Assembly (NCBI GenBank): GCA_031441465.1
Contig: JANOEP010000030.1
Span: 1-18,579 of the forward strand
Direction of reading: 5' to 3'
DNA from: a bacterium
GTDB lineage: Bacteria > Krumholzibacteriota > Krumholzibacteriia > LZORAL124-64-63
DNA: 18,579 nucleotides
The translations under genes were made by a program, and so were the position numbers. This document shows, piece by piece, positions 3,094 to 18,579 of the stretch (within the stretch, counting starts at the first letter, position 1; the number at the start of each line of letters is the position of its first letter). The notes below the pieces were generated by a model, which was not told the DNA's origin, did no database searches, and saw only the letters and a list, made by a program, of their open reading frames with translations.

Positions 3094-6000
3094 TCACATG
3101 TTCCTTCTGTACTGCCCACCCACCTCGTACAGCGCCGCGCTCATCTGCCCCAGCGAACACACCCGCGACGCGTCGAGCAGCGCCTCGAAGACGTTGCCGT
3201 GCGCGACGGCGAGGCGCTGCATCGCGCGCAGCGCTTCGGGGGCGCGACCGGCGTTGCGCCGCTGGTAGTCGGCCAGCGAGACGATGGCGTACTCCTTCTC
3301 CTGCGACGTCGAGCGGATGACCTCGCCGGGGATTGCCGTCGGGGAGCCCTTGGGGTCGAGGTAGGTGTTCACGCCGATGATGGGCAGCTCGCCGCTGTGC
3401 TTGCGCGACTCGTAGAGCAGGGATTCCTCCTGGATGCGGGTGCGCTGGTACATGCGCTCCATGGCGCCCAGGACGCCGCCGCGCTCGCTGAGGCGCTCGA
3501 ACTCCGCCAGCACCGCCTCCTCCACCAGGTCGGTCAGCTCGTCGACGATGAACGCGCCCTGCAGGGGGTTCTCGTTGCGGGCCAGGCCCAGCTCCTGGTT
3601 GATGATCAGCTGGATGGCCATCGCGCGGCGCACCGACTCCTCGGTCGGGGTGGTGATCGCCTCGTCGTAGGCGTTGGTGTGCAGGCTGTTGCAGTTGTCG
3701 TAGATCGCGTAGAGCGCCTGCAGCGTGGTGCGGATGTCGTTGAAACCGATCTCCTGGGCGTGGAGCGAGCGCCCGGAGGTCTGGATGTGGTACTTGAGCT
3801 TCTGCGCGCGCTCGTTGGCGCCGTAGAGGTTGCGCAGGGCCTTGGCCCAGAGGCGCCGCGCGACGCGGCCCATCACGGCGTATTCGGGGTCCATGCCGTT
3901 GCTGAAGAAGAACGAGAGGTTGGGCGCGAAGTCGTCGACGCGCATGCCGCGCGACAGGTAGTACTCGACGTAGGTGAAGCCGTTGGCGAGAGTCAACGCC
4001 AGTTGGGTGATCGGGTTGGCGCCCGCCTCGGCGATGTGGTAGCCGCTGATCGAGACCGAGTAGAAATTACGCACGCCGCGGTCGATGAAGGCCTGCTGCA
4101 TGTCGCCCATCATGCGCAGCGCGAACTCGGTGGAGAAGATGCAGGTGTTCTGGGCCTGGTCCTCCTTGAGGATGTCGGCCTGCACGGTGCCGCGCACGTT
4201 CGCCAGGGTCTCGCGGCGGATCCGCTCGTAGATCTCGGGCTCGAGCACCCGGTCGCCGCCGGAGCCGAGCAGCAGCAGGCCCAGGCCGTCGTGCCCCTGG
4301 GGCAACGGGCCCTGGTAGGCGGGACGCGGCAGGTCCAGTGCGGCGTATTCGCCCGCGATCCGCGCCGCGACCTCGTCGGCGCGGCCTTGGCTGCGCAGCC
4401 ACTTCTCGCACTGCTGGTCGACGGCGGCGTTCAGGAAGAAGGCCAGCATCATCGGCGCGGGGCCGTTGATGGTCATCGAGACGCTGGTGCGGGGGTCGGT
4501 CAGGTCGAAACCGCTGTAGAGCTTCACCGCGTCGTCGAGGGTGGCGACGCTCACGCCCGAGTTGCCGACCTTGCCGTAGATGTCGGGGCGGCGGTCGGGG
4601 TCCTCGCCGTAGAGGGTCACCGAGTCGAAGGCGGTCGAGAGCCGCTTCGCCGGCATGCCCAGCGAGACGTAGTGGAAGCGGCGGTTGGTGCGCTCGGGTC
4701 CGCCCTCGCCGGCGAACATGCGCGTGGGGTCCTCCCCCTCGCGCTTCAGCGGGAAGACGCCCGCGGCGTAGGGGAACTCGCCGGGTACGTTTTCGGTCAG
4801 CAGCCAGCGCAGCACCTCGCCCCAGTCGTCCCAGCGCGGCAGCGCGACGCGGGGGATGCGCGTGCCGCTGGGCGAGAGCGAGACCAGGGGCTGCGCCACC
4901 GTCTTGTCGCGCACCTGGAAGCTGTAGGCGTCCTGCGCGTAGCGGTGGCGGGTCGCGGGCCAGGCGCGCAGCAGTTCCGCGCAACCGGCGTCGAGGCGGC
5001 GCAGCAGCGCCGCGTAGCCCGCCAGCAGCTCGGCGCAGCCGGCGGGGTCGCCCGCGCGGGGTTCCGGCGCGGGCAACACCTCGGCGGGGTCGGGCGCCGC
5101 CCCGCGCAACTCGCAGAGCGCGCCGTGGAGCCGGTAGAGCCGGCGCGCGAGCCCGCCCTGCTCGGCGACGAAGGCGTCGTGGCGACGGCTGGCCTCGACG
5201 ATCTCGGACAGGTAGCGCGTGCGCGCCGGCGGGATCACGAAGTTGCGCTCGGTGGTGACCGGATCCCCGCCCACCGCCGTGGGGAAGTCCGCGCCCGTTT
5301 TGGCGCCGATCACACGCATCAGGTGGCCGTAGAGCGCGCTCAGGCCCGGGTCGTGGAACTGGCTGGCGATGGTCGCGAAGATCGGCAGTTCGCCGGGCGC
5401 GGTCTCGAACAGGCCGTGGTTGCGGGCGTACTGCTTGCGGACGTCGCGCAGGGCGTCCTGCGAGCCGCGGTGGTCGTACTTGTTCAGGGCGACGACGTCG
5501 GCGAAGTCGAGCATGTCGATCTTCTCGAGCTGCGACGCGGCGCCGTACTCGGCGGTCATGACGTACAGGGAGACGTCCGAGTGCTCGACGATCTCGGTGT
5601 CGCTCTGGCCGATGCCCGAGGTCTCCACGATCACCAGGTCGAAGCCGGCCGCGCGGCAGACGGCGATGGCGTCGCGCACATGGCCGCTGAGCGCGAGATT
5701 GGCCTGGCGCGTGGCCGGCGAGCGCATGTAGGCGCGCGGGTCGCCGATGGCGTTCATGCGGATGCGGTCGCCCAGCAGGGCGCCGCCCGATTTGCGCTTG
5801 CTCGGGTCGACGCTGACCACCGCGACGGTCTTGTCGCGGAACTCGTGCAGGAAGCGGCGCACCAGCTCGTCCACCAGCGACGACTTGCCGGAGCCGCCGG
5901 TGCCGGTGACCCCCAGCACGGGCGCGCGGCGCGCTTCGGCCAGCGCCGCGATCCGCGGCGCGATCCCGGCGTAGGCCGCCGGCAGGTTCTCGGCCAGCGT

Positions 6001-6546
6001 GATCGCGCGCGCGATCGCCTGCGGGTCGCGGGCCTCGACGCCGGCGACCAGTTCGATGCCGTCCGCCGTCACGGTCGGGAAGTCGCAGCCCCGGAGCACC
6101 TCGTCGATCATGCCCTGCAGGCCCATGGCCCGGCCGTCGTCGGGCGAGAAGATGCGGGCGATGCCGTGGGCGTGCAGCTCGGCGATCTCGTCGGGCAGGA
6201 TGGTGCCGCCGCCGCCGCCGTAGATGCGCGTCGCCGCGCCGCGCTCGCGCAGCAGGTCGTGCATGTACTTGAAGAATTCGAGGTGCCCGCCCTGGTACGA
6301 GGTGATGGCCACGCCCTGGGCGTCCTCCTGGATCGCGCAGTCCACGATCTCGCGCACCGAGCGGTTGTGCCCGAGGTGGATCACCTCGGCCCCGCCCGCC
6401 TGCAGCAGCCGCCGCATGATGTTGATGGCGGCGTCGTGGCCGTCGTAGAGACTGGCGGCGGTGACGATGCGCACGTGGTGCTGCGGCTTGTAGGGCTGGA
6501 CTGGTTTGTGGGGCTGGACTGGTTTGTTGGGCTGAATTTGGGGCAT
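3094..6546 (-). CDS. icmF: Fused isobutyryl-CoA mutase / MeaI GTPase chaperone IcmF (AdoCbl-dependent), 1150 aa
   Basis: N-terminal B12-binding domain ([22 protein letters not shown]); GTPase ([30 protein letters not shown]); mutase barrel (RMFAGEG with the ICM-type Phe, [45 protein letters not shown]); C-terminal GGQYRRNM. Confidence 0.97.
6481..6534 (-). repeat. Three 18-bp tandem units in the icmF 5' end encoding [18 protein letters not shown]
   Basis: Minus-strand units are CAGCCCAACAAACCAGTC, CAGCCCCACAAACCAGTC and CAGCCCTACAAGCCGCAG. Confidence 0.9.
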
Positions 6547-12692: not shown

Positions 12693-13451
12693 CCGCACGG
12701 CGCCGATCACCGCCGCGAAGCGGCCCGCAGCCGCGCCCTCGCGGCGGTAGCTGTAGAAGAGGTCGTTGCGGCAGAGGGTGCAATAACCGGAGGTGACGAT
12801 GGAAGTGTCGGGCAGGCCGGCTTCGCGCAACTGCGCGCGGTTGGCGGCCCAGAGGTCGAAGTGGAGGCGGTCCTCGTGGGCGCGGAAGAATTCGACGGCG
12901 CCGGAACCGAGTTCCGACAGGGCGCGGTCGCGCACCTCTGCACCCACCTCGTAGCAGCAGGGGCCGGCCGAGGGGGCGATGCCCGCACGCAGGACCGCGG
13001 GATCGACCCCGGCCCGTGCGAGCGCGGCGATCAGGCGCGCGGTGATCCGCTGCACGGTCGAGCGCCAGGACGCGTGCGCCACGCCCCAGATCGGCGCGCC
13101 GTCGGGCCGCGCGCCGGCCACCAGCACCAACGGGCAGTCGGCGCTGCGGGCCATGACGCCCAGGCCGGGACGGTCGGTCCACAGGGCGTCGCCGGGGCCG
13201 GCGTAGCCGGGGACGTCGGCGTACAGGACCGTGTCGCCGTGGACCTGGAACGCCCAGGCGGCGCCGTCGAGGCCCAGCGAGGCGGCCAGCGCCCCGGCCG
13301 GCACGGCGTGCGACGGGTGGTGGGAGGGCTCGTCGCCGAGGTCGGGGCCGTCGCGCGTGGTCACGGTGTGCACCAGACCAGGCGCGGCGAGATGGGGGAA
13401 GACGCCGCGTCGGCGGCCCTGACCGTCGTCGACCAGAACGAAGCCGCTCAC
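12657..13451 (-). CDS. pgeF: PgeF/YfiH-family protein (peptidoglycan editing factor; purine nucleoside phosphorylase/polyphenol oxidase-like, DUF152), 264 aa
   Basis: Start reassigned to GTG 13451 (GTGA overlap with the Mur ligase stop). His-Cys-His triad motifs QVHG, SADCPLV and HASWR; also PSAGPCCYEVG and CTLC...FYSYRRE..AGR. Confidence 0.92.
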   Translation of the reverse strand: MSGFVLVDDGQGRRRGVFPHLAAPGLVHTVTTRDGPDLGDEPSHHPSHAVPAGALAASLGLDGAAWAFQVHGDTVLYADVPGYAGPGDALWTDRPGLGVMARSADCPLVLVAGARPDGAPIWGVAHASWRSTVQRITARLIAALARAGVDPAVLRAGIAPSAGPCCYEVGAEVRDRALSELGSGAVEFFRAHEDRLHFDLWAANRAQLREAGLPDTSIVTSGYCTLCRNDLFYSYRREGAAAGRFAAVIGAVRSGQVSGQGFHR

Positions 13452-14839
13452 TTCAATGTTCCTTCGGCCCGCCCGGCCACCGCGGCCAGGGCGTCGCGCG
13501 CCAGATCGGTGAGCGAGGGGTCGCGCGCGCCCATCACCAGCACCAGATCGCTCGCGCGGGCTTCGTCGGCGATCAGTCGCGGCAGGTCGGCGCGTTCCGC
13601 CGCGAAGCGGGCGTCGCGCCCGGCGGCCCGGACCCCGCGCACGAGGTCCTGCGAGGAGATGTCGCGGGTCACGGTGCCCCCGGCGAAGAAGATCTCCGGC
13701 AGCCAGAGCACGTCGGACGGCGCGAGCGCCTCGGCGAAGGCGGCGACGAGGTCGTCGCGCAGGAAACGCGTGGGTCCGAAACCGTGGGGCTGGAAGACGG
13801 CGAGGATGCGGCCGCCGCGCAGGCGGGCCGCGGCCAGCGCGGCGCGCAGCTTGTCCGGGTTGTGGGCGAAGTCGTCGACGACCGTCACGCCGCGCGCCGC
13901 GCCGACGATGCGGAAGCGCCGCGCCACGCCGCGGAAATCGCGCAGCGCGGCGGCGATCTGCGGCAGGGCGGCGCCGCACGCCTCGGCCACGGCGGTCGCC
14001 GCCAGCGCGTTGAGCACGTCGTGGCGGCCGGGCGTCGGCAACGCGAACTCGGTGCCGCCGACGCGGAAGCGAGAACCGTCGGGAAGCAGTTCCACCGCCT
14101 CGGCCCGCAGGTCGGCGCGCGGGCCGAACCCGAAGCGCACGTCGGGCCGCAGCTCGTCGAGGTTCGCGTCCTCGCCGCAGATCAGCGGGCCGGTCACGCG
14201 GTCGCGGAAGGCGCGGAACATCGCCGCCACCTCGGCGGTCTCCTTGTGGTCGCGCTGCAGGTTGAGCACCACGCCGCACCAGGGCTCGTAGCGCACCAGG
14301 CTGCCGTCGCTCTCGTCGGCTTCGACGACCAGCAGCTCGCCGGCGGGGTCGGCCCAGGCGTTGCCGGAGACGCCGCGCTCCTCCAGCTCGATCAGGGCGC
14401 CGCCGGTGATCACCGACGGCTTCAACCCGGCGCCGCGCAGGGCGGCGAAGGTCATGGCCACGACCGTCGACTTGCCGCTGGTGCCGGTGACGGCGATCGT
14501 GCGCCGCGCCTTCACGAAGCGGGCCAGCAGCTCGCTGCGGTGCAGCAGGGGCACCCCGCGCTCGCGCGCGGCGCGCACGTCGGCGTTGTCGTCCTCCACG
14601 GCGGTCGAGATCACCACGGCGTCGCAGCCGGCCGCCGCGCCGGACCCGTCCTGGGGCGTGATCACGACCCCGGCCGCGGTCAGCGCGGTGCGCAGCTCGG
14701 CGTTGCCGCCGCGGTCGAAGGCGCGGTCGCTGCCCGAGACGCGCCCGCCCAGCGCGGCGTGGTAGAAGGCCAGTGCGGACATGCCGCTGCCGCCGACCCC
14801 GATGAAGTGGTAGGCGGCCGGGCGTTCAGACGACGACAA
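13448..14839 (-). CDS. Mur ligase, divergent MurC/Mpl-like (UDP-N-acetylmuramate--amino acid/peptide ligase), 463 aa
   Basis: HFIGVGGSGMSALA, SGSD, P-loop GTSGKST, EADESDGS, LNLQRDH, DDFAHNP, VFQPHG and LVMGAR. TTG start is preceded by GAGGGG and overlaps the upstream gene by 14 nt. The exact substrate is uncertain. Confidence 0.88.
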   Translation of the reverse strand: MSSSERPAAYHFIGVGGSGMSALAFYHAALGGRVSGSDRAFDRGGNAELRTALTAAGVVITPQDGSGAAAGCDAVVISTAVEDDNADVRAARERGVPLLHRSELLARFVKARRTIAVTGTSGKSTVVAMTFAALRGAGLKPSVITGGALIELEERGVSGNAWADPAGELLVVEADESDGSLVRYEPWCGVVLNLQRDHKETAEVAAMFRAFRDRVTGPLICGEDANLDELRPDVRFGFGPRADLRAEAVELLPDGSRFRVGGTEFALPTPGRHDVLNALAATAVAEACGAALPQIAAALRDFRGVARRFRIVGAARGVTVVDDFAHNPDKLRAALAAARLRGGRILAVFQPHGFGPTRFLRDDLVAAFAEALAPSDVLWLPEIFFAGGTVTRDISSQDLVRGVRAAGRDARFAAERADLPRLIADEARASDLVLVMGARDPSLTDLARDALAAVAGRAEGTLK

Positions 14840-15380
14840 CGGGATCCCCCTCGTCGACGCACTCGAACAGGTTGAGCACGTCGGTGTTGCTCATGCGGAT
14901 GCACCCCTGGGAGACGGGCTCGCCGATGCGGTCCTCGTGGTTGGTGCCGTGGATGTAGATGAAGCGCGCCTCCGAGTCGCAGCCGGGGCCGCTGTTCACG
15001 CCCGCCTCGCAGCCCTGCAGGGTGAGGATGCGCGTCAGGATGAGGTCGTCCTGCGGCGCGGGCTCGCCCGGTCGCCACACGCCCTCGGGCTCGCGGCTGC
15101 TGAACCAGGTGCCGAGTTCCTGCCCGGCGCCGATGCGCCGCGCGATCCGGTGCACGCCCGGCGGGGTGCCGAAGGAGCCCTCGCGCCCGTTGATCCCGGC
15201 GGTGGCCGTCGAGACGCCGTAGACGCGGCTCGCGCGCCCGTCCTCGACCAGGACCAGGCACTGGTCGGCGACGCTCACCAGGAGCCAGCGCGGCGGCTCC
15301 TCCCCCAGGACGCGCCGGAGGCTCGCGAGCGCGTCGCGGTGCATCTCGCTGTCGATCAAGCCGTTGCCGCCGCGTTGCAT
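14826..15380 (-). CDS. YkuD-family L,D-transpeptidase/carboxypeptidase catalytic domain protein without signal peptide (ElsL-like), about 184 aa
   Basis: VSVADQ...YGVSTA...GTPPG...ILTRIL...IYIHGT...SQGCIRMSN (catalytic His and Cys). Start is ATG 15380 or 15344; neither gives a hydrophobic leader. Confidence 0.88.
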   Translation of the reverse strand: MQRGGNGLIDSEMHRDALASLRRVLGEEPPRWLLVSVADQCLVLVEDGRASRVYGVSTATAGINGREGSFGTPPGVHRIARRIGAGQELGTWFSSREPEGVWRPGEPAPQDDLILTRILTLQGCEAGVNSGPGCDSEARFIYIHGTNHEDRIGEPVSQGCIRMSNTDVLNLFECVDEGDPVVVV

Positions 15381-15548
15381 GAACCTGCCCCCCGGGTGGA
15401 TGCTCCCGGCGCGACCGTAACACCGGCCCGCCGCGCCGGGCAACGGCCGACTGCAAACAACTGTGAATTTGAAAACAGCGCGGCCGATGACCATGGTTGG
15501 TTTCCGGACCGCCCGTCCACCACCGATCCCCCCGCCCGCGGAGGAGCC

Positions 15549-17789
15549 ATGACCGAGATCAGGGGCGCTGCGCTGCCGTTCGACATCGACCGCGCCCTCG
15601 ACGATCAGATCCTGGCCGTGATGCAGAACCGCCCGACGGTGGTGCTGACCGAGGCGTTGGATCCGCGCACCGTCGAGGCCGCCTGCCACCTCTCACGCTT
15701 CGCGCGGCTGGTGTTCCTGGCGGACGAGGCGGCGGTGCGGGCCGTCCAGCGCGATCAGTTGCCCCACCTCGACGCGACCCGCGTGGCGTACACCTTCCAG
15801 AACGCGGCCTTCATCGACCCGGCGACCCGTTCCGACCTGCTGGACGAGTTCGTCGACGAGTACCTGGCCCTGCCCGCGGAGCTGCGCCGGGCCGACCTGC
15901 CGCAGGAGGCGCGCCTGCTGCTGAGCGAGCCCGCCCGCTTCGGCATCATGTGCGTGCGCTGCGGCCACGCCGACACGGTCGTCGGCGGCCTCACGCACGA
16001 GCCGCGGCAGTACTTCCGGCCCATGCTGCGCCTGCTGCGCGTCAACAAGGTCATGTGCGAAGCGGGCATCTTCGTGCTGCCCCCGGATCACCCCGAGGGC
16101 ATCTTCCCGCACAACATCGTGATCTTCGGCGACGTGGGCGTGAACGCGACGATGACGCCCGAGACGCTGGCCCGCATCGCGGTGGGCACCTGCGCCGTGG
16201 CCCGCGACCTCTTCCCGGAGGACGTGCTGCCGACGATCAACGGCGCCATCGTCAGCTACTCGCACAAGGGCTCCGACGAGGGCCCGTCGCCCGAGCTGGT
16301 CCGTCGCGCCACGGCCCTGGTGCCCGAGATCCTCGCCGAGCGCATCGCCCTGGGCGAGCGCTATCGCACGATCCACATCGAGGGCGAGGTCAAGATCTCC
16401 ACCGCCCTGTCGCGGCGCTCGGCCATGTACTACCAGCCGGCCGAGGGAGCGCCCGGGGGCACCAACGTCATCATCGCGCCCAATCTCGACCTGGGGAACC
16501 TGCTGTTCCACCTCTACGCCACGCGCTACCCGGAGGCGAAGAAGTTCCCGGTGATGTTCGGCGTGCGCTTCAAGGGCGTGGACCTGCCGATGGACTCCTC
16601 GGCGCAGGACGTCATGCTCGCCGTCAAGGCCAGCCTGCTGCGCCACCACAAGTTCGGCCACTGGACCCGCACCCCCAAGGACACCTTCTTCCCGCGCCCG
16701 CGCATCCTGGCGATCAACCCCGGCTCGACCAGCACCAAGATCAGCGTCTACGAGGGCGACCTCGAGTGCTTCACCAAGGAGCTGCAGCACGGCGCCGCCG
16801 AGCTGTCGCCCTACGATTCGCGGCCCATCACCGAGCAGGCGGGCTTCCGCAAGGAAGCCGTGCTGGCCGCGCTGGCCGAGCACGACCTGACGCCGGCCGA
16901 CCTCGACGCCGTCGCCGGGCGCGGCGGTCTGGTGCGGCCCATCCCCCACGGCACCTACGCCGTCAACGAGCGGATGCTGGCCGACCTGCGCGCCGCCGTG
17001 GGCGGGGAGCACGCCTCGAACCTCGGGGCGCTCATCGCCGACGAACTCTGCCGCGGCACCGACCTGCCCGCCTACATCGTCGACCCCGTGGTCGTGGACG
17101 AGGTCTGGGAGAAGGCCAAGATCACCGGCTTCAAGGCGGTCCGCCGCCTGGTGATCAGCCACGCCCTGAATCAGATCGCCACGGCGCAGCGCTTCGCGCA
17201 GGAGCACGAGACGTTCTACGAGCGCATCAACGTGATCGTCTGCCACATGGGCGGCGGCATCACCGTCGGCGCCCATCGCCGGGGCCGCTACCTGGACGTC
17301 AACAACGGGCTCAACGGCGAAGGCCCCTTCACGCCGCAGCGCTCCGGCACCGTGCCCACCGGACAGCTCATCGACCTGTGCTTCTCGGGCCGCTTCACCC
17401 AGGCCGAACTCAAGCTGCTGAACAAGGGACGCGGCGGGCTGATCGACCTGCTCGGCACCGCGGACCTGCGCGAAGTGGAGCGGCGCGTCGCCGACGGCGA
17501 CGAGTGGGCGACCCTGGTCTTCGACGCCATGGCCTACCAGATCGCCAAGCACATCGCCATGCTGCTGCCCGCCTTCCAGGACGAGCCCGTCGACGGCATC
17601 CTGCTGACCGGAGGCATGGCCCGCAGCGCCGGTCTGGTCGCGGCGATCCGCTCCTACGTCCCGGCGCACTGCGGCCGGGTCGTCGTCTATCCCGGCGAGA
17701 ACGAGATGGCCGCCCTGGTCCAGGGAGCCCTGCGCGTCCTGAACGGCAAGGAAGAGGCCCGCATCTACGCCCCGGAGGCCGAGTCGTGA
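15549..17789 (+). CDS. buk: Fusion of a degenerate phosphate acyltransferase (PTA/PTB) domain (about aa 1-375) and butyrate kinase (about aa 385-746)
   Basis: Start reassigned to ATG 15549 (RBS GGAGG). Kinase motifs ILAINPGSTSTK, GRGG, EHASNLG, VDPVVVDE, HALNQ, HMGGG, LTGGMA and YPGENEM. The N-domain has PTA-like segments (GHADTVVGG, SYSHKGS, NVIIAPNLDLGN). Confidence 0.92.
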   Translation: MTEIRGAALPFDIDRALDDQILAVMQNRPTVVLTEALDPRTVEAACHLSRFARLVFLADEAAVRAVQRDQLPHLDATRVAYTFQNAAFIDPATRSDLLDEFVDEYLALPAELRRADLPQEARLLLSEPARFGIMCVRCGHADTVVGGLTHEPRQYFRPMLRLLRVNKVMCEAGIFVLPPDHPEGIFPHNIVIFGDVGVNATMTPETLARIAVGTCAVARDLFPEDVLPTINGAIVSYSHKGSDEGPSPELVRRATALVPEILAERIALGERYRTIHIEGEVKISTALSRRSAMYYQPAEGAPGGTNVIIAPNLDLGNLLFHLYATRYPEAKKFPVMFGVRFKGVDLPMDSSAQDVMLAVKASLLRHHKFGHWTRTPKDTFFPRPRILAINPGSTSTKISVYEGDLECFTKELQHGAAELSPYDSRPITEQAGFRKEAVLAALAEHDLTPADLDAVAGRGGLVRPIPHGTYAVNERMLADLRAAVGGEHASNLGALIADELCRGTDLPAYIVDPVVVDEVWEKAKITGFKAVRRLVISHALNQIATAQRFAQEHETFYERINVIVCHMGGGITVGAHRRGRYLDVNNGLNGEGPFTPQRSGTVPTGQLIDLCFSGRFTQAELKLLNKGRGGLIDLLGTADLREVERRVADGDEWATLVFDAMAYQIAKHIAMLLPAFQDEPVDGILLTGGMARSAGLVAAIRSYVPAHCGRVVVYPGENEMAALVQGALRVLNGKEEARIYAPEAES

Positions 17790-18579
17790 CCCCGATCCGC
17801 ACCCTGGACGAGATGGTCGCATCCCTGCGCTCGATGCCTGCCCGGCACGTGGCCGTGGCCGCGGGCCACGACCCCAACACGATCGAGGCCGCGGCGCGCG
17901 CCGTCCGCGAGGGGATCGCGCGGGTGACCCTGGTGGGCGACGCGGCCCGCATCGCCGCGCTCTGCGCCGCGCAGCGGCTCGACGAGCGCGCCTTCGACGT
18001 GGTCGACGAGCCGGACGTCGCGACCGCGGGGCTGCGCGCCCGCGACCTGGTGCGCGAGGGCCGCGCCGACGTGCTGATGAAGGGCCTGATCCCCACCGCC
18101 GACTACATGAAGTCGATCCTGGACAAGGAGCGCGGCCTGCTGCCCGCGGGCGCGGTGCTGACCCACCTGACGGTGTTCGAACTGCCCGCCCACAGCGCCC
18201 GCCACGGCAAGCTGCTGTTCGTCAGCGACGTGGCGGTCATCCCGTTGCCGGATCTCGCGACGAAGAAGCAGATCCTGCGCTGCTGCATCGACGCGGCCCA
18301 CAGCTTCGGGCTGGAGCGGCCCCTGGCCGCCCTGCTGGCCGCCAGCGAGAAGGTCAGCCCGAAGATGCCGGCGACCGTCGAGGCGGCGGCGATCACCGCG
18401 GCCGCCGCCGCGGAATTCCCCGACGCCGTGGTCGACGGGCCCCTGGCCCTGGACGTCGCCATCTCGCCCGAGGCCTGCGACATCAAGGGCCTGGTCTCGC
18501 CGCTGGGCGGCGCGGCGGACATCCTGGTCTTCCCCAACATCGAGAGCGGCAACATCTTCTACAAGGCGGGCACGCTGCT
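17786..18579 (+). CDS. ptb: Phosphate butyryltransferase, 3' truncated by the window edge (absent from the ORF track)
   Basis: GTG 17786 overlaps the buk stop (GTGA). My translation: MTPIRTLDEM...VAVAAGHD...ADVLMKG...SDVAVIPLP...ASEKVSPKMPAT...VDGPLALDVAIS...ADILVFPNIESGNIFYK. No stop occurs before the window end. Confidence 0.92.
   Translation, partial: MTPIRTLDEMVASLRSMPARHVAVAAGHDPNTIEAAARAVREGIARVTLVGDAARIAALCAAQRLDERAFDVVDEPDVATAGLRARDLVREGRADVLMKGLIPTADYMKSILDKERGLLPAGAVLTHLTVFELPAHSARHGKLLFVSDVAVIPLPDLATKKQILRCCIDAAHSFGLERPLAALLAASEKVSPKMPATVEAAAITAAAAAEFPDAVVDGPLALDVAISPEACDIKGLVSPLGGAADILVFPNIESGNIFYKAGTL

Follow-up and report, generated by a model that had tools for sequence, protein, structure and literature searches.

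A butyrate kinase fused to a phosphotransacylase-fold domain that lacks the catalytic Ser-Arg pair, next to a separate ptb gene

The window analysed here is a whole contig of 18,579 bases, from a genome of 3.49 Mb in 74 contigs with about 70% G+C, and its gene at 15549-17789 joins an N-terminal phosphotransacylase (PTA)-like domain to a butyrate kinase (Buk). The N-domain lacks the Ser-Arg pair of phosphotransacetylase (Pta), and a gene for a separate Ptb-like phosphotransacylase follows directly. The protein is predicted to be an active butyrate or short- or branched-chain acyl kinase, whose PTA-fold domain would no longer catalyse the phosphotransacylase step; the reaction acyl-coenzyme A (acyl-CoA) + inorganic phosphate <-> acyl-phosphate + CoA would be done by the separate Ptb. 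We tentatively favour, at somewhat below even chances, a reading in which the dead domain is retained as a pseudo-subunit that pairs with a Ptb subunit via the canonical dimer face of the PTA fold. Such pairing would keep the live transacylase up against the kinase in a tethered assembly, and acyl-phosphate would be handed directly between them.

The gene is one uninterrupted open reading frame (ORF) on the plus strand, from the ATG at 15549 to the TGA at 17787-17789, and encodes 746 amino acids. Pfam places PTA_PTB (PF01515) on residues 25-357 (91.3 bits, cutoff 24) and Acetate_kinase (PF00871) on the C-terminal half (56.9 bits, cutoff 22). Specifically, residues 385-738 match the NCBIfam butyrate kinase model TIGR02707 with 438.5 bits, above its cutoff of 289.1, and residues 385-744 match PDB entries 1saz/1x9j with an E value of 5e-96. 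By family score and fold, the kinase half is an ordinary Buk. The N-terminal half scores far under the cutoffs of the Pta models (TIGR00651, 84.4 against 311.2 bits; NF007233, 102.6 against 310 bits). Its scores under the cutoffs and its lack of the catalytic pair place the N-domain, as judged by sequence, outside the Pta equivalog families. The earlier note had described a fusion with an intact kinase domain; the single ORF with both domain calls bears out the former and the TIGR02707 score the latter. An ordinary pta-ackA pair is present on another contig of the same genome. The gene and its parts are as follows.

15540..15546, plus strand: Shine-Dalgarno-like GGAGGAG, 2 nt 5' of the fusion-gene ATG
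15549..17789, plus strand: fusion gene, PTA-like N-domain and butyrate kinase, from the ORF, Pfam and NCBIfam
15549..16700, plus strand: N-domain, residues 1-384, PTA_PTB fold with conserved Pta positions remodelled
16701..17786, plus strand: butyrate kinase domain, residues 385-746, from TIGR02707 and the PDB and Foldseek matches

The N-domain was aligned with the solved Pta chains 1qzt and 6iow using HMMER, and residue pairs were counted along the 1qzt alignment. DLPMD aligns to DLSRG, EGEVKISTA (residues 278-286) to DGELQVDAA, and GDVG (residues 194-197) to ADSG/ADCA, so the three variant motifs lie where the earlier note had put them. Ser309, Arg310 and Gly311 of Methanosarcina Pta fall on Pro347, Met348 and Asp349, respectively. 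Three Pta residues are kept, namely Asp307 (Asp345), Asp316 (Asp354) and Arg133 (Arg157). The positions discussed below are as follows.

16017..16019, plus strand: codon of Arg157 (FRP), equivalent of Methanosarcina Pta Arg133
16392..16394, plus strand: codon of Lys282 (EVK), which replaces the Gln of the E-L/M-Q motif
16581..16595, plus strand: DLPMD, residues 345-349, which replaces the DLSRG of active Pta

For column statistics, fusion rows without the Arg are designated clade A (63 rows) and Ser-Arg-bearing fusion rows clade B (21 rows). Asp345 is present at 0.94 and Asp354 at 1.00 of the clade-A rows. At the catalytic pair, Pta rows carry Ser at 0.93 and Arg at 0.98. That this pair is catalytic in Pta, as the earlier note had stated, is supported by mutants described in PMC6461089: replacement of Ser309 and Arg310 in Methanosarcina thermophila Pta (MtPta) greatly affects kcat, and S311A and R312A of P. 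gingivalis Pta (PgPta) decrease activity completely or dramatically. The same paper reports that MtPta Arg87 and Arg133 act mainly on Km, and that the PgPta equivalent of Arg133 contacts the phosphates of CoA.

Judged by sequence, the N-domain very probably has no normal Pta or Ptb activity. It is quite improbable that the domain is still an enzyme with a rebuilt site (for example Lys282, Tyr295 and Asp349), maybe for another substrate, in an operon with two transacylases. The replacements are indeed polar or charged and fixed (Lys282 1.00, Tyr295 0.97, Asp349 1.00), Asp345 and Asp354 are kept, and the conservation of the domain is close to that of the kinase domain. However, in both Ptas covered by PMC6461089, enzymes deprived of the Ser or the Arg lost most or all of their activity, and here the Arg has become Met, not another base. 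The TIGR00651 score is 84.4 bits, against 137.1 for a Ser-Arg fusion. Moreover, a Ser-Arg Ptb accompanies most Arg-less fusions, which fits a lost activity supplied in trans.

The Arg-less fusion is widespread. A word-indexed protein search returned 740 proteins at E <= 1e-5, and the counts given here use the best 120 of these 740. They are 733-790 residues long, contain both Pfam domains, are 64-95% identical to the window protein and, where the database names them, are called 'butyrate kinase'. Their motif reads G[VIL]DL[P/A/S/T][M/L/V/A/I]D, with Pro at the first variable position in 99, Met at the second in 110 and Arg at the second in 1; two proteins do not match the pattern. Because none of these 120 close homologues carries Ser-Arg, the substitution is not an error or chance. 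The conservation of the loss, which the earlier note had raised, thus extends to fixation in a large clade. Each of the 24 other genomes from the same family has a match to the fusion, in three cases a partial one that stops short of a terminus, and in six other families of the class (16 genomes) the matches span the kinase part only or the Pta part only.

Two observations concern individual members of the family. In two of them, one in-frame TGA lies inside the fusion match (G013:C1:224382-226604 and G008:C261:424-2649); it may reflect an error in sequencing, a disrupted gene or a match that extends 5' of the real start. One genome of the window's genus has two copies of fusion plus ptb (G004:C11:26471-28705 and G004:C10:133320-135554; loci L016 and L020), which are 95% and 94% identical to the window protein and share flanking HDOD genes. 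Either the pair was duplicated, or two strains were binned together.

Conservation of the N-domain comes close to that of the kinase domain. Among 42 crown-clade rows, pairwise identity averages 66.5% in the N-domain and 71.7% in the kinase, and columns with at least 95% conservation number 129 of 356 and 157 of 356, respectively. This near equality indicates that the N-domain is under constraint, and on these alignments it is remodelled and retained rather than decaying.

The remodelling is coordinated. We compared the 63 clade-A rows at the columns where 46 Pta rows and the 21 clade-B rows agree. Gln is present in 100% of the clade-B and Pta rows at the position where Lys282 is present in 100% of the clade-A rows. 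Further new residues are fixed in clade A, namely Met202 in place of Pro (0.97), Tyr295 in place of Lys (0.97), Met348 in place of Arg (0.98) and Asp349 in place of Gly/Ser (1.00). Other clade-A changes are Thr to Asn/His/Asp at 239 and Ala to Gly at 194. In clade A, 100% of the rows have Arg157, whereas clade B varies at this position. The helix 311-322 on the dimer face is nearly invariant.

These fixed residues bear on an alternative, in which the dead PTA fold is an allosteric sensor that binds CoA, acyl-CoA or acyl-phosphate and tunes the kinase, with no need for Ptb contact. We consider this possible but rather unlikely. It has a precedent in the hybrid malic enzyme MaeB, whose PTA domain, according to PMC7902834, has no PTA activity, binds acetyl-CoA and signals its occupancy to the fused enzyme. 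New residues fixed in the old active site are what a ligand pocket would predict, and the invariance of Arg157 in clade A, set against its variability in the Ser-Arg rows, also points this way. On the other hand, the equivalent of Arg87 (position 109), which is Arg in 0.87 of the Pta rows, is lost in Arg-less and Ser-Arg fusions alike and is variable in clade A. The route of inactivation also differs from that of MaeB, in which the Asp is lost that is kept here as Asp354.

The origin of the loss was traced with sister lineages. An exhaustive search with the N-domain only found 39 representatives at E <= 1e-30; ordinary Ptas came next, with identities near 30%. Ser-Arg or Ala-Arg, and likewise E-L/M-Q, persist in the more distant of the full-length fusions and in a few stand-alone proteins. 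We surveyed one genome per species and classified the resulting 80 loci by script. The Arg is absent at 62 of the 80, where the motif is DL[A/P][M/L]D; 60 of these are fused to Buk and 2 are cut by contig ends. Their other motifs are EVK or EIK (PVK in 2) and FGDVG or close variants, and they occur in Holophagaceae including five cultured Geothrix species, Holophaga, Thermoanaerobaculaceae, Terriglobia and a few other taxa. Ser-Arg is present at 15 loci (13 fused to Buk, 2 stand-alone), together with E-L/M-Q and SYSTRGS, under the taxon labels Caldithrix, KSB1, Myxococcota/Polyangia, 'Deltaproteobacteria' and 'Rickettsiales'. Ala-Arg or Ala-Lys is present at 3 loci with spirochaete labels, all fused to Buk.

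An assembly artefact, or the stop between the domains that the earlier note had allowed for, was ruled out, as the same continuous ORF recurs in the best 120 of the 740 homologues and at 76 of the 80 genome loci.

A careful maximum-likelihood tree was calculated from 48 rows, comprising 34 fusion-family N-domains, 11 ordinary Ptas and 3 Ptbs as the root, and no MaeB rows. The 34 fusion-family N-domains form a single clade (100/100), apart from the 11 Ptas on a long stem (2.66 changes per column). Within it, the Ser-Arg lineages diverge earliest, at supports of 85-90 that are not all strong. Next comes an Ala-Arg protein, whose sister group (100/99) is a clade (100/100) containing the remaining Ala-Arg/Lys forms. 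Nested in this Ala-Arg/Lys-containing clade is a crown clade of 14 Arg-less rows (97/89), with the window protein inside it.

On this tree, the loss of Ser-Arg is derived. As Ser-Arg is shared by Pta, Ptb and the basal lineages, the branching order indicates that Ser was lost first and Arg later, and each loss apparently happened once. Retention of Ser-Arg by homologues, which the earlier note had counted as telling against the loss, is absent from the close homologues and present in distant members of the fusion family; these distant fusions do not refute the loss, because theirs is the older state on the tree.

Two Ser-Arg-bearing N-domains stand alone, in Caldithrix and KSB1 metagenome-assembled genomes (L021, 5971-7125, plus strand; L022, 5279-6439, plus strand). 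They form a clade of their own (100/100) nested inside the fusion family, with no buk within 6 kb, which suggests that the kinase was secondarily lost or separated.

The second gene of the pair overlaps the first and runs to the end of the contig.

17786..18577, plus strand: Ptb-like phosphotransacylase gene; GTG start overlaps the fusion TGA (GTGA); 264 amino acids, cut by the contig end

The Ptb-like ORF matches PF01515 with 141.9 bits, and its best NCBIfam matches are Ptb models. Against the TIGR02706 cutoff of 410.5 bits, the incomplete window copy scores 228.2, and complete copies of relatives score 287.1 and 306.4. The overlapping GTG is the likely start, because the consensus of the Ptb alignment shows conservation of the stretch (xxPIRTLD) encoded between it and the first ATG. 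In a same-genus relative, fusion and ptb are separated by a 1-nt gap instead of an overlap. The earlier note had called this gene a canonical-looking, translationally coupled ptb; the GTGA overlap and the Ptb-model matches agree with this, whereas the window copy ends before the Ser-Arg motif, which the neighbouring Ptbs of relatives keep (Ser276-Arg277 in 26 of 26 aligned rows).

Linkage to ptb was scored as a Ptb match of at least 80 bits across the locus, which takes in 5-6 kb of flank on either side if the contig extends that far. A ptb is present at 43 of 58 informative Arg-less loci (4 more have too little flank), at 0 of 13 informative Ser-Arg loci (2 more are uninformative) and at 0 of 3 informative Ala-Arg/Lys loci. 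At 22 of the 43, ptb and fusion share a strand and lie -25 to +227 nt apart; at the other 21, mostly of Geothrix type, it is convergent. Neither the sensor alone nor a purely architectural role would explain so frequent, and often overlapping, a neighbour. The proposal that organisms with Ser-Arg fusions lack Ptb altogether was ruled out at genome level, as 4 of 5 Ser-Arg-clade genomes have Ptb-like genes elsewhere. No wider conserved operon beyond fusion and ptb was found among the compared loci, where the neighbours vary between lineages.

The whole protein was modelled with AlphaFold2 from a 48-row alignment, with a mean predicted local distance difference test (pLDDT) of 88.6 and a predicted template modelling score (pTM) of 0.85. 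Low confidence is confined to the ends and to residues 239-244 and 297-301. In Foldseek, the C-terminal half superimposes on Buk chains with a target-based TM-score (TMt) of 0.89-0.93 and a root-mean-square deviation of 1.7-2.0. The N-terminal half is about equally close to Pta chains (TMt 0.75-0.81) and to MaeB PTA chains (TMt 0.79-0.82). No solved chain among the Foldseek matches covers both halves (query-based TM-score at most 0.46). The likeness to the MaeB PTA domain, together with the pTM of the two-domain model, which suggests a defined arrangement between the domains, is also consistent with the sensor.

Because the window ptb is incomplete, we modelled the complex of the N-domain (residues 1-384) with the complete Ptb of a relative in the same genus; the fusions of the two are 95% identical. 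The N-domain:Ptb model scores 0.74, and the best of three controls scores 0.00; among solved complexes 116 of 157 attain this mark, as do 2 of 215 mismatched pairs. Contacts agree between the runs to at least 93%, and the partner has a pLDDT of at least 85. The modelled interface is the PTA dimer face, with residues 310-326, 235-237 and 283-287 of chain 1, and includes the replaced residues 348-349. Taken together, synteny and the passing complex model support a Ptb-scaffold role of the kind that the earlier note had put forward, although the pass may mirror solved PTA homodimers.

Several observations weigh against Ptb pairing as the reason why the dead domain is kept. The complex pass may reflect only likeness to solved PTA homodimers, as the model does not tell a heterodimer from a homodimer, and one would expect homodimers of the N-domain itself to use this face. 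Met202, Lys282, Tyr295 and Asp349 already occur at the three Ala-Arg/Lys loci, none of which has an adjacent ptb. Because these loci have most of the changes, the remodelling is older than the ptb linkage, as the sensor would also lead one to expect. At 15 of the 58 informative Arg-less loci, there is no ptb within 5-6 kb; of five such genomes searched whole, four have a Ptb elsewhere (42-48% identity) and one has only weak Pta-type matches. Ptb-like genes are also present elsewhere in 4 of 5 Ser-Arg-clade genomes (34-38% identity), so the ptb contrast is one of adjacency, not of genome content. The linkage counts are descriptive, without a statistical test, and loci of related organisms are not independent. 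Finally, the kept Asp345 and Asp354 are the equivalents of two residues whose mutation hurt PgPta activity, which counts against the proposed loss of catalysis.

An improbable alternative is purely architectural, namely that the domain acts through homodimer formation alone, determining how the kinase oligomerises or how stable it is, with neither ligand nor Ptb contact. PTA-fold proteins are dimers according to PMC6461089 and PMC7902834, the dimer-face helix 311-322 is nearly invariant, and the ptb-less loci fit such a role. However, besides the ptb linkage, the fixed new residues at former active-site positions are left unexplained. Pairing with Ptb and sensing of a CoA ester, by comparison, are not mutually exclusive. 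The earlier note had proposed a non-catalytic PTA-like domain on an intact Buk beside a separate ptb, either as a CoA- or acyl-CoA-regulated kinase or as a scaffold for Ptb; the arrangement is supported by sequence, whereas none of the computations here separates the proposed roles.

A bolder form of the pairing reading, in which we place less trust, is that the dead Ptb-fold domain and the live Ptb form an asymmetric heterodimer tied to Buk. The dead domain would gate or enter the live site and pass acyl-phosphate directly to the kinase, and the assembly would channel acyl-CoA to ATP, having evolved stepwise from a one-chain bifunctional transacylase-kinase. According to PMC7902834, the lining of the acetyl pocket in the PTA dimer of MaeB includes a residue from the opposing monomer, so the change of Gln to Lys282 and the presence of residues 348-349 in the interface are of interest. 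Specifically, Lys282 would replace the Gln that the opposing monomer supplies in PTA dimers. In the stepwise scheme, Ser would have been lost first and Arg later, with ancestral and intermediate states still living.

Comparison with known systems places the domain in its own family next to Pta. Class I Ptas (M. thermophila, 1QZT; P. gingivalis, 6IOW) have the same two-lobed fold along the whole N-domain. The framework kept from Pta comprises E35, R40, D195, SYS..GS, the G316-N317 helix, D345 and D354. Unlike in Class I Pta, Ser-Arg is absent, and the equivalents of Gln244, Lys257, Thr211 and Lys283 are changed, as counted on the HMMER alignment. The Ser-Arg fusions and stand-alone forms belong to the same N-domain family, with an M-F-D-I/L-E start and a His for Pta Lys283, and the fusions share the architecture. 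These Ser-Arg members keep Ser-Arg, E-L/M-Q, SYSTRGS and the Lys257 equivalent, and are without the Arg157 equivalent. The Ser-Arg-bearing fusions may be true one-chain transacylase-kinases. The C-terminal 362 residues correspond to a standard Buk, as in Thermotoga maritima Buk 2 (1SAZ, 1X9J; TMt about 0.9). Compared with the ptb-buk pair, the order here is buk then ptb, and the kinase bears an extra 384-residue, presumably dead paralogue of its partner.

The MaeB PTA domain (PDB 6ZNG, 6ZNT) is likewise a PTA fold without transacetylase activity, which here is a prediction, fused to a metabolic enzyme (PMC7902834). Here, however, the partner is butyrate kinase, the next enzyme after the transacylase, and the PTA domain is N-terminal. 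The MaeB domain deviates at the Asp316 equivalent and at a Ser/Thr, whereas the fusion's N-domain retains the Asp and has lost Ser309/Arg310; the MaeB PDB matches stop at residue 343, before the DLPMD motif, and the MaeB side of this residue comparison comes from PMC7902834. By sequence the N-domain is nearer to Pta (E 8.5e-21 to 7.6e-12) than to MaeB (1e-10 and weaker). It is not close kin of the MaeB PTA domain, and in the tree, which has no MaeB rows, it forms its own family next to Pta. By analogy, it would be most like MaeB in its way of working, that of a repurposed PTA fold, with another partner and another route of inactivation. Full-text literature searches, which do not cover subscription journals, found no paper on a PTA-like-Buk fusion by title or start of abstract. 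New here are the Ser-Arg sister lineages and intermediates, the tree, the remodelled sites, the ptb-adjacency contrast and the complex model.

The surroundings of the locus differ between lineages. In two other genera of the same family (L017, 2469-9299, minus strand; L019, 8827-15635, plus strand), ptb is directly followed by a complete Rnf-type operon with RnfC, RnfD, Rnf-Nqr subunits, an RnfB-like protein, RseC and ApbE. In the window's genus (L015, L016), two HDOD-domain genes follow ptb instead. At L026 (133-3822, plus strand) and L027 (2209-5904, plus strand), a Ser-Arg fusion lies directly 3' of a same-strand xanthine-dehydrogenase-type molybdenum oxidoreductase with FAD-binding, 2Fe-2S and MoCo subunits. 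Where a Ptb neighbour is missing, some Holophaga-type loci have an ordinary Pta-type gene 0.1-3 kb downstream on the opposite strand (L089, 11023-12642, minus strand, with 403 bits to PF01515; L067, 5375-6400, minus strand; L072, 9017-10033, minus strand).

Upstream of the fusion, a divergent MurC/Mpl-like Mur ligase and a YkuD L,D-transpeptidase are encoded at 13448-15380 (minus strand). This pair is also upstream in other genera and is the only other recurring neighbour in the family. In L017, one open frame spans both domains; L015, L016 and L018 have similarly sized ORFs upstream, seen by size alone. Nine kilobases upstream of the fusion, the window encodes a fused IcmF (3094-6546, minus strand; NF045497, 1714.1 bits against a cutoff of 1500) with B12-binding, MeaB and mutase parts. 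IcmF, an isobutyryl-CoA mutase/GTPase, interconverts butyryl-CoA and isobutyryl-CoA. It may feed the same acyl-CoA pool as the fusion.

Metabolic engineering makes wide use of Ptb-Buk, the textbook pathway by which butyryl-CoA and branched-chain acyl-CoAs yield ATP at the substrate level. In a large group of bacteria from soil and sediment, most of them Acidobacteriota and with cultured Geothrix among them, Buk is joined to what is very probably a dead form of its partner's fold. Genome counts of the butyrate pathway should not score this N-domain as a second transacylase. If the domain is a dock or a CoA-ester sensor, it would be the second independent case, after MaeB, of a PTA fold turned to a regulatory or scaffold role, and the family would offer a rare set in which active ancestor-like, half-way and end states can all be compared. 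The Ser-Arg relatives, if they are natural single-chain transacylase-kinases, would be useful parts for pathway design.

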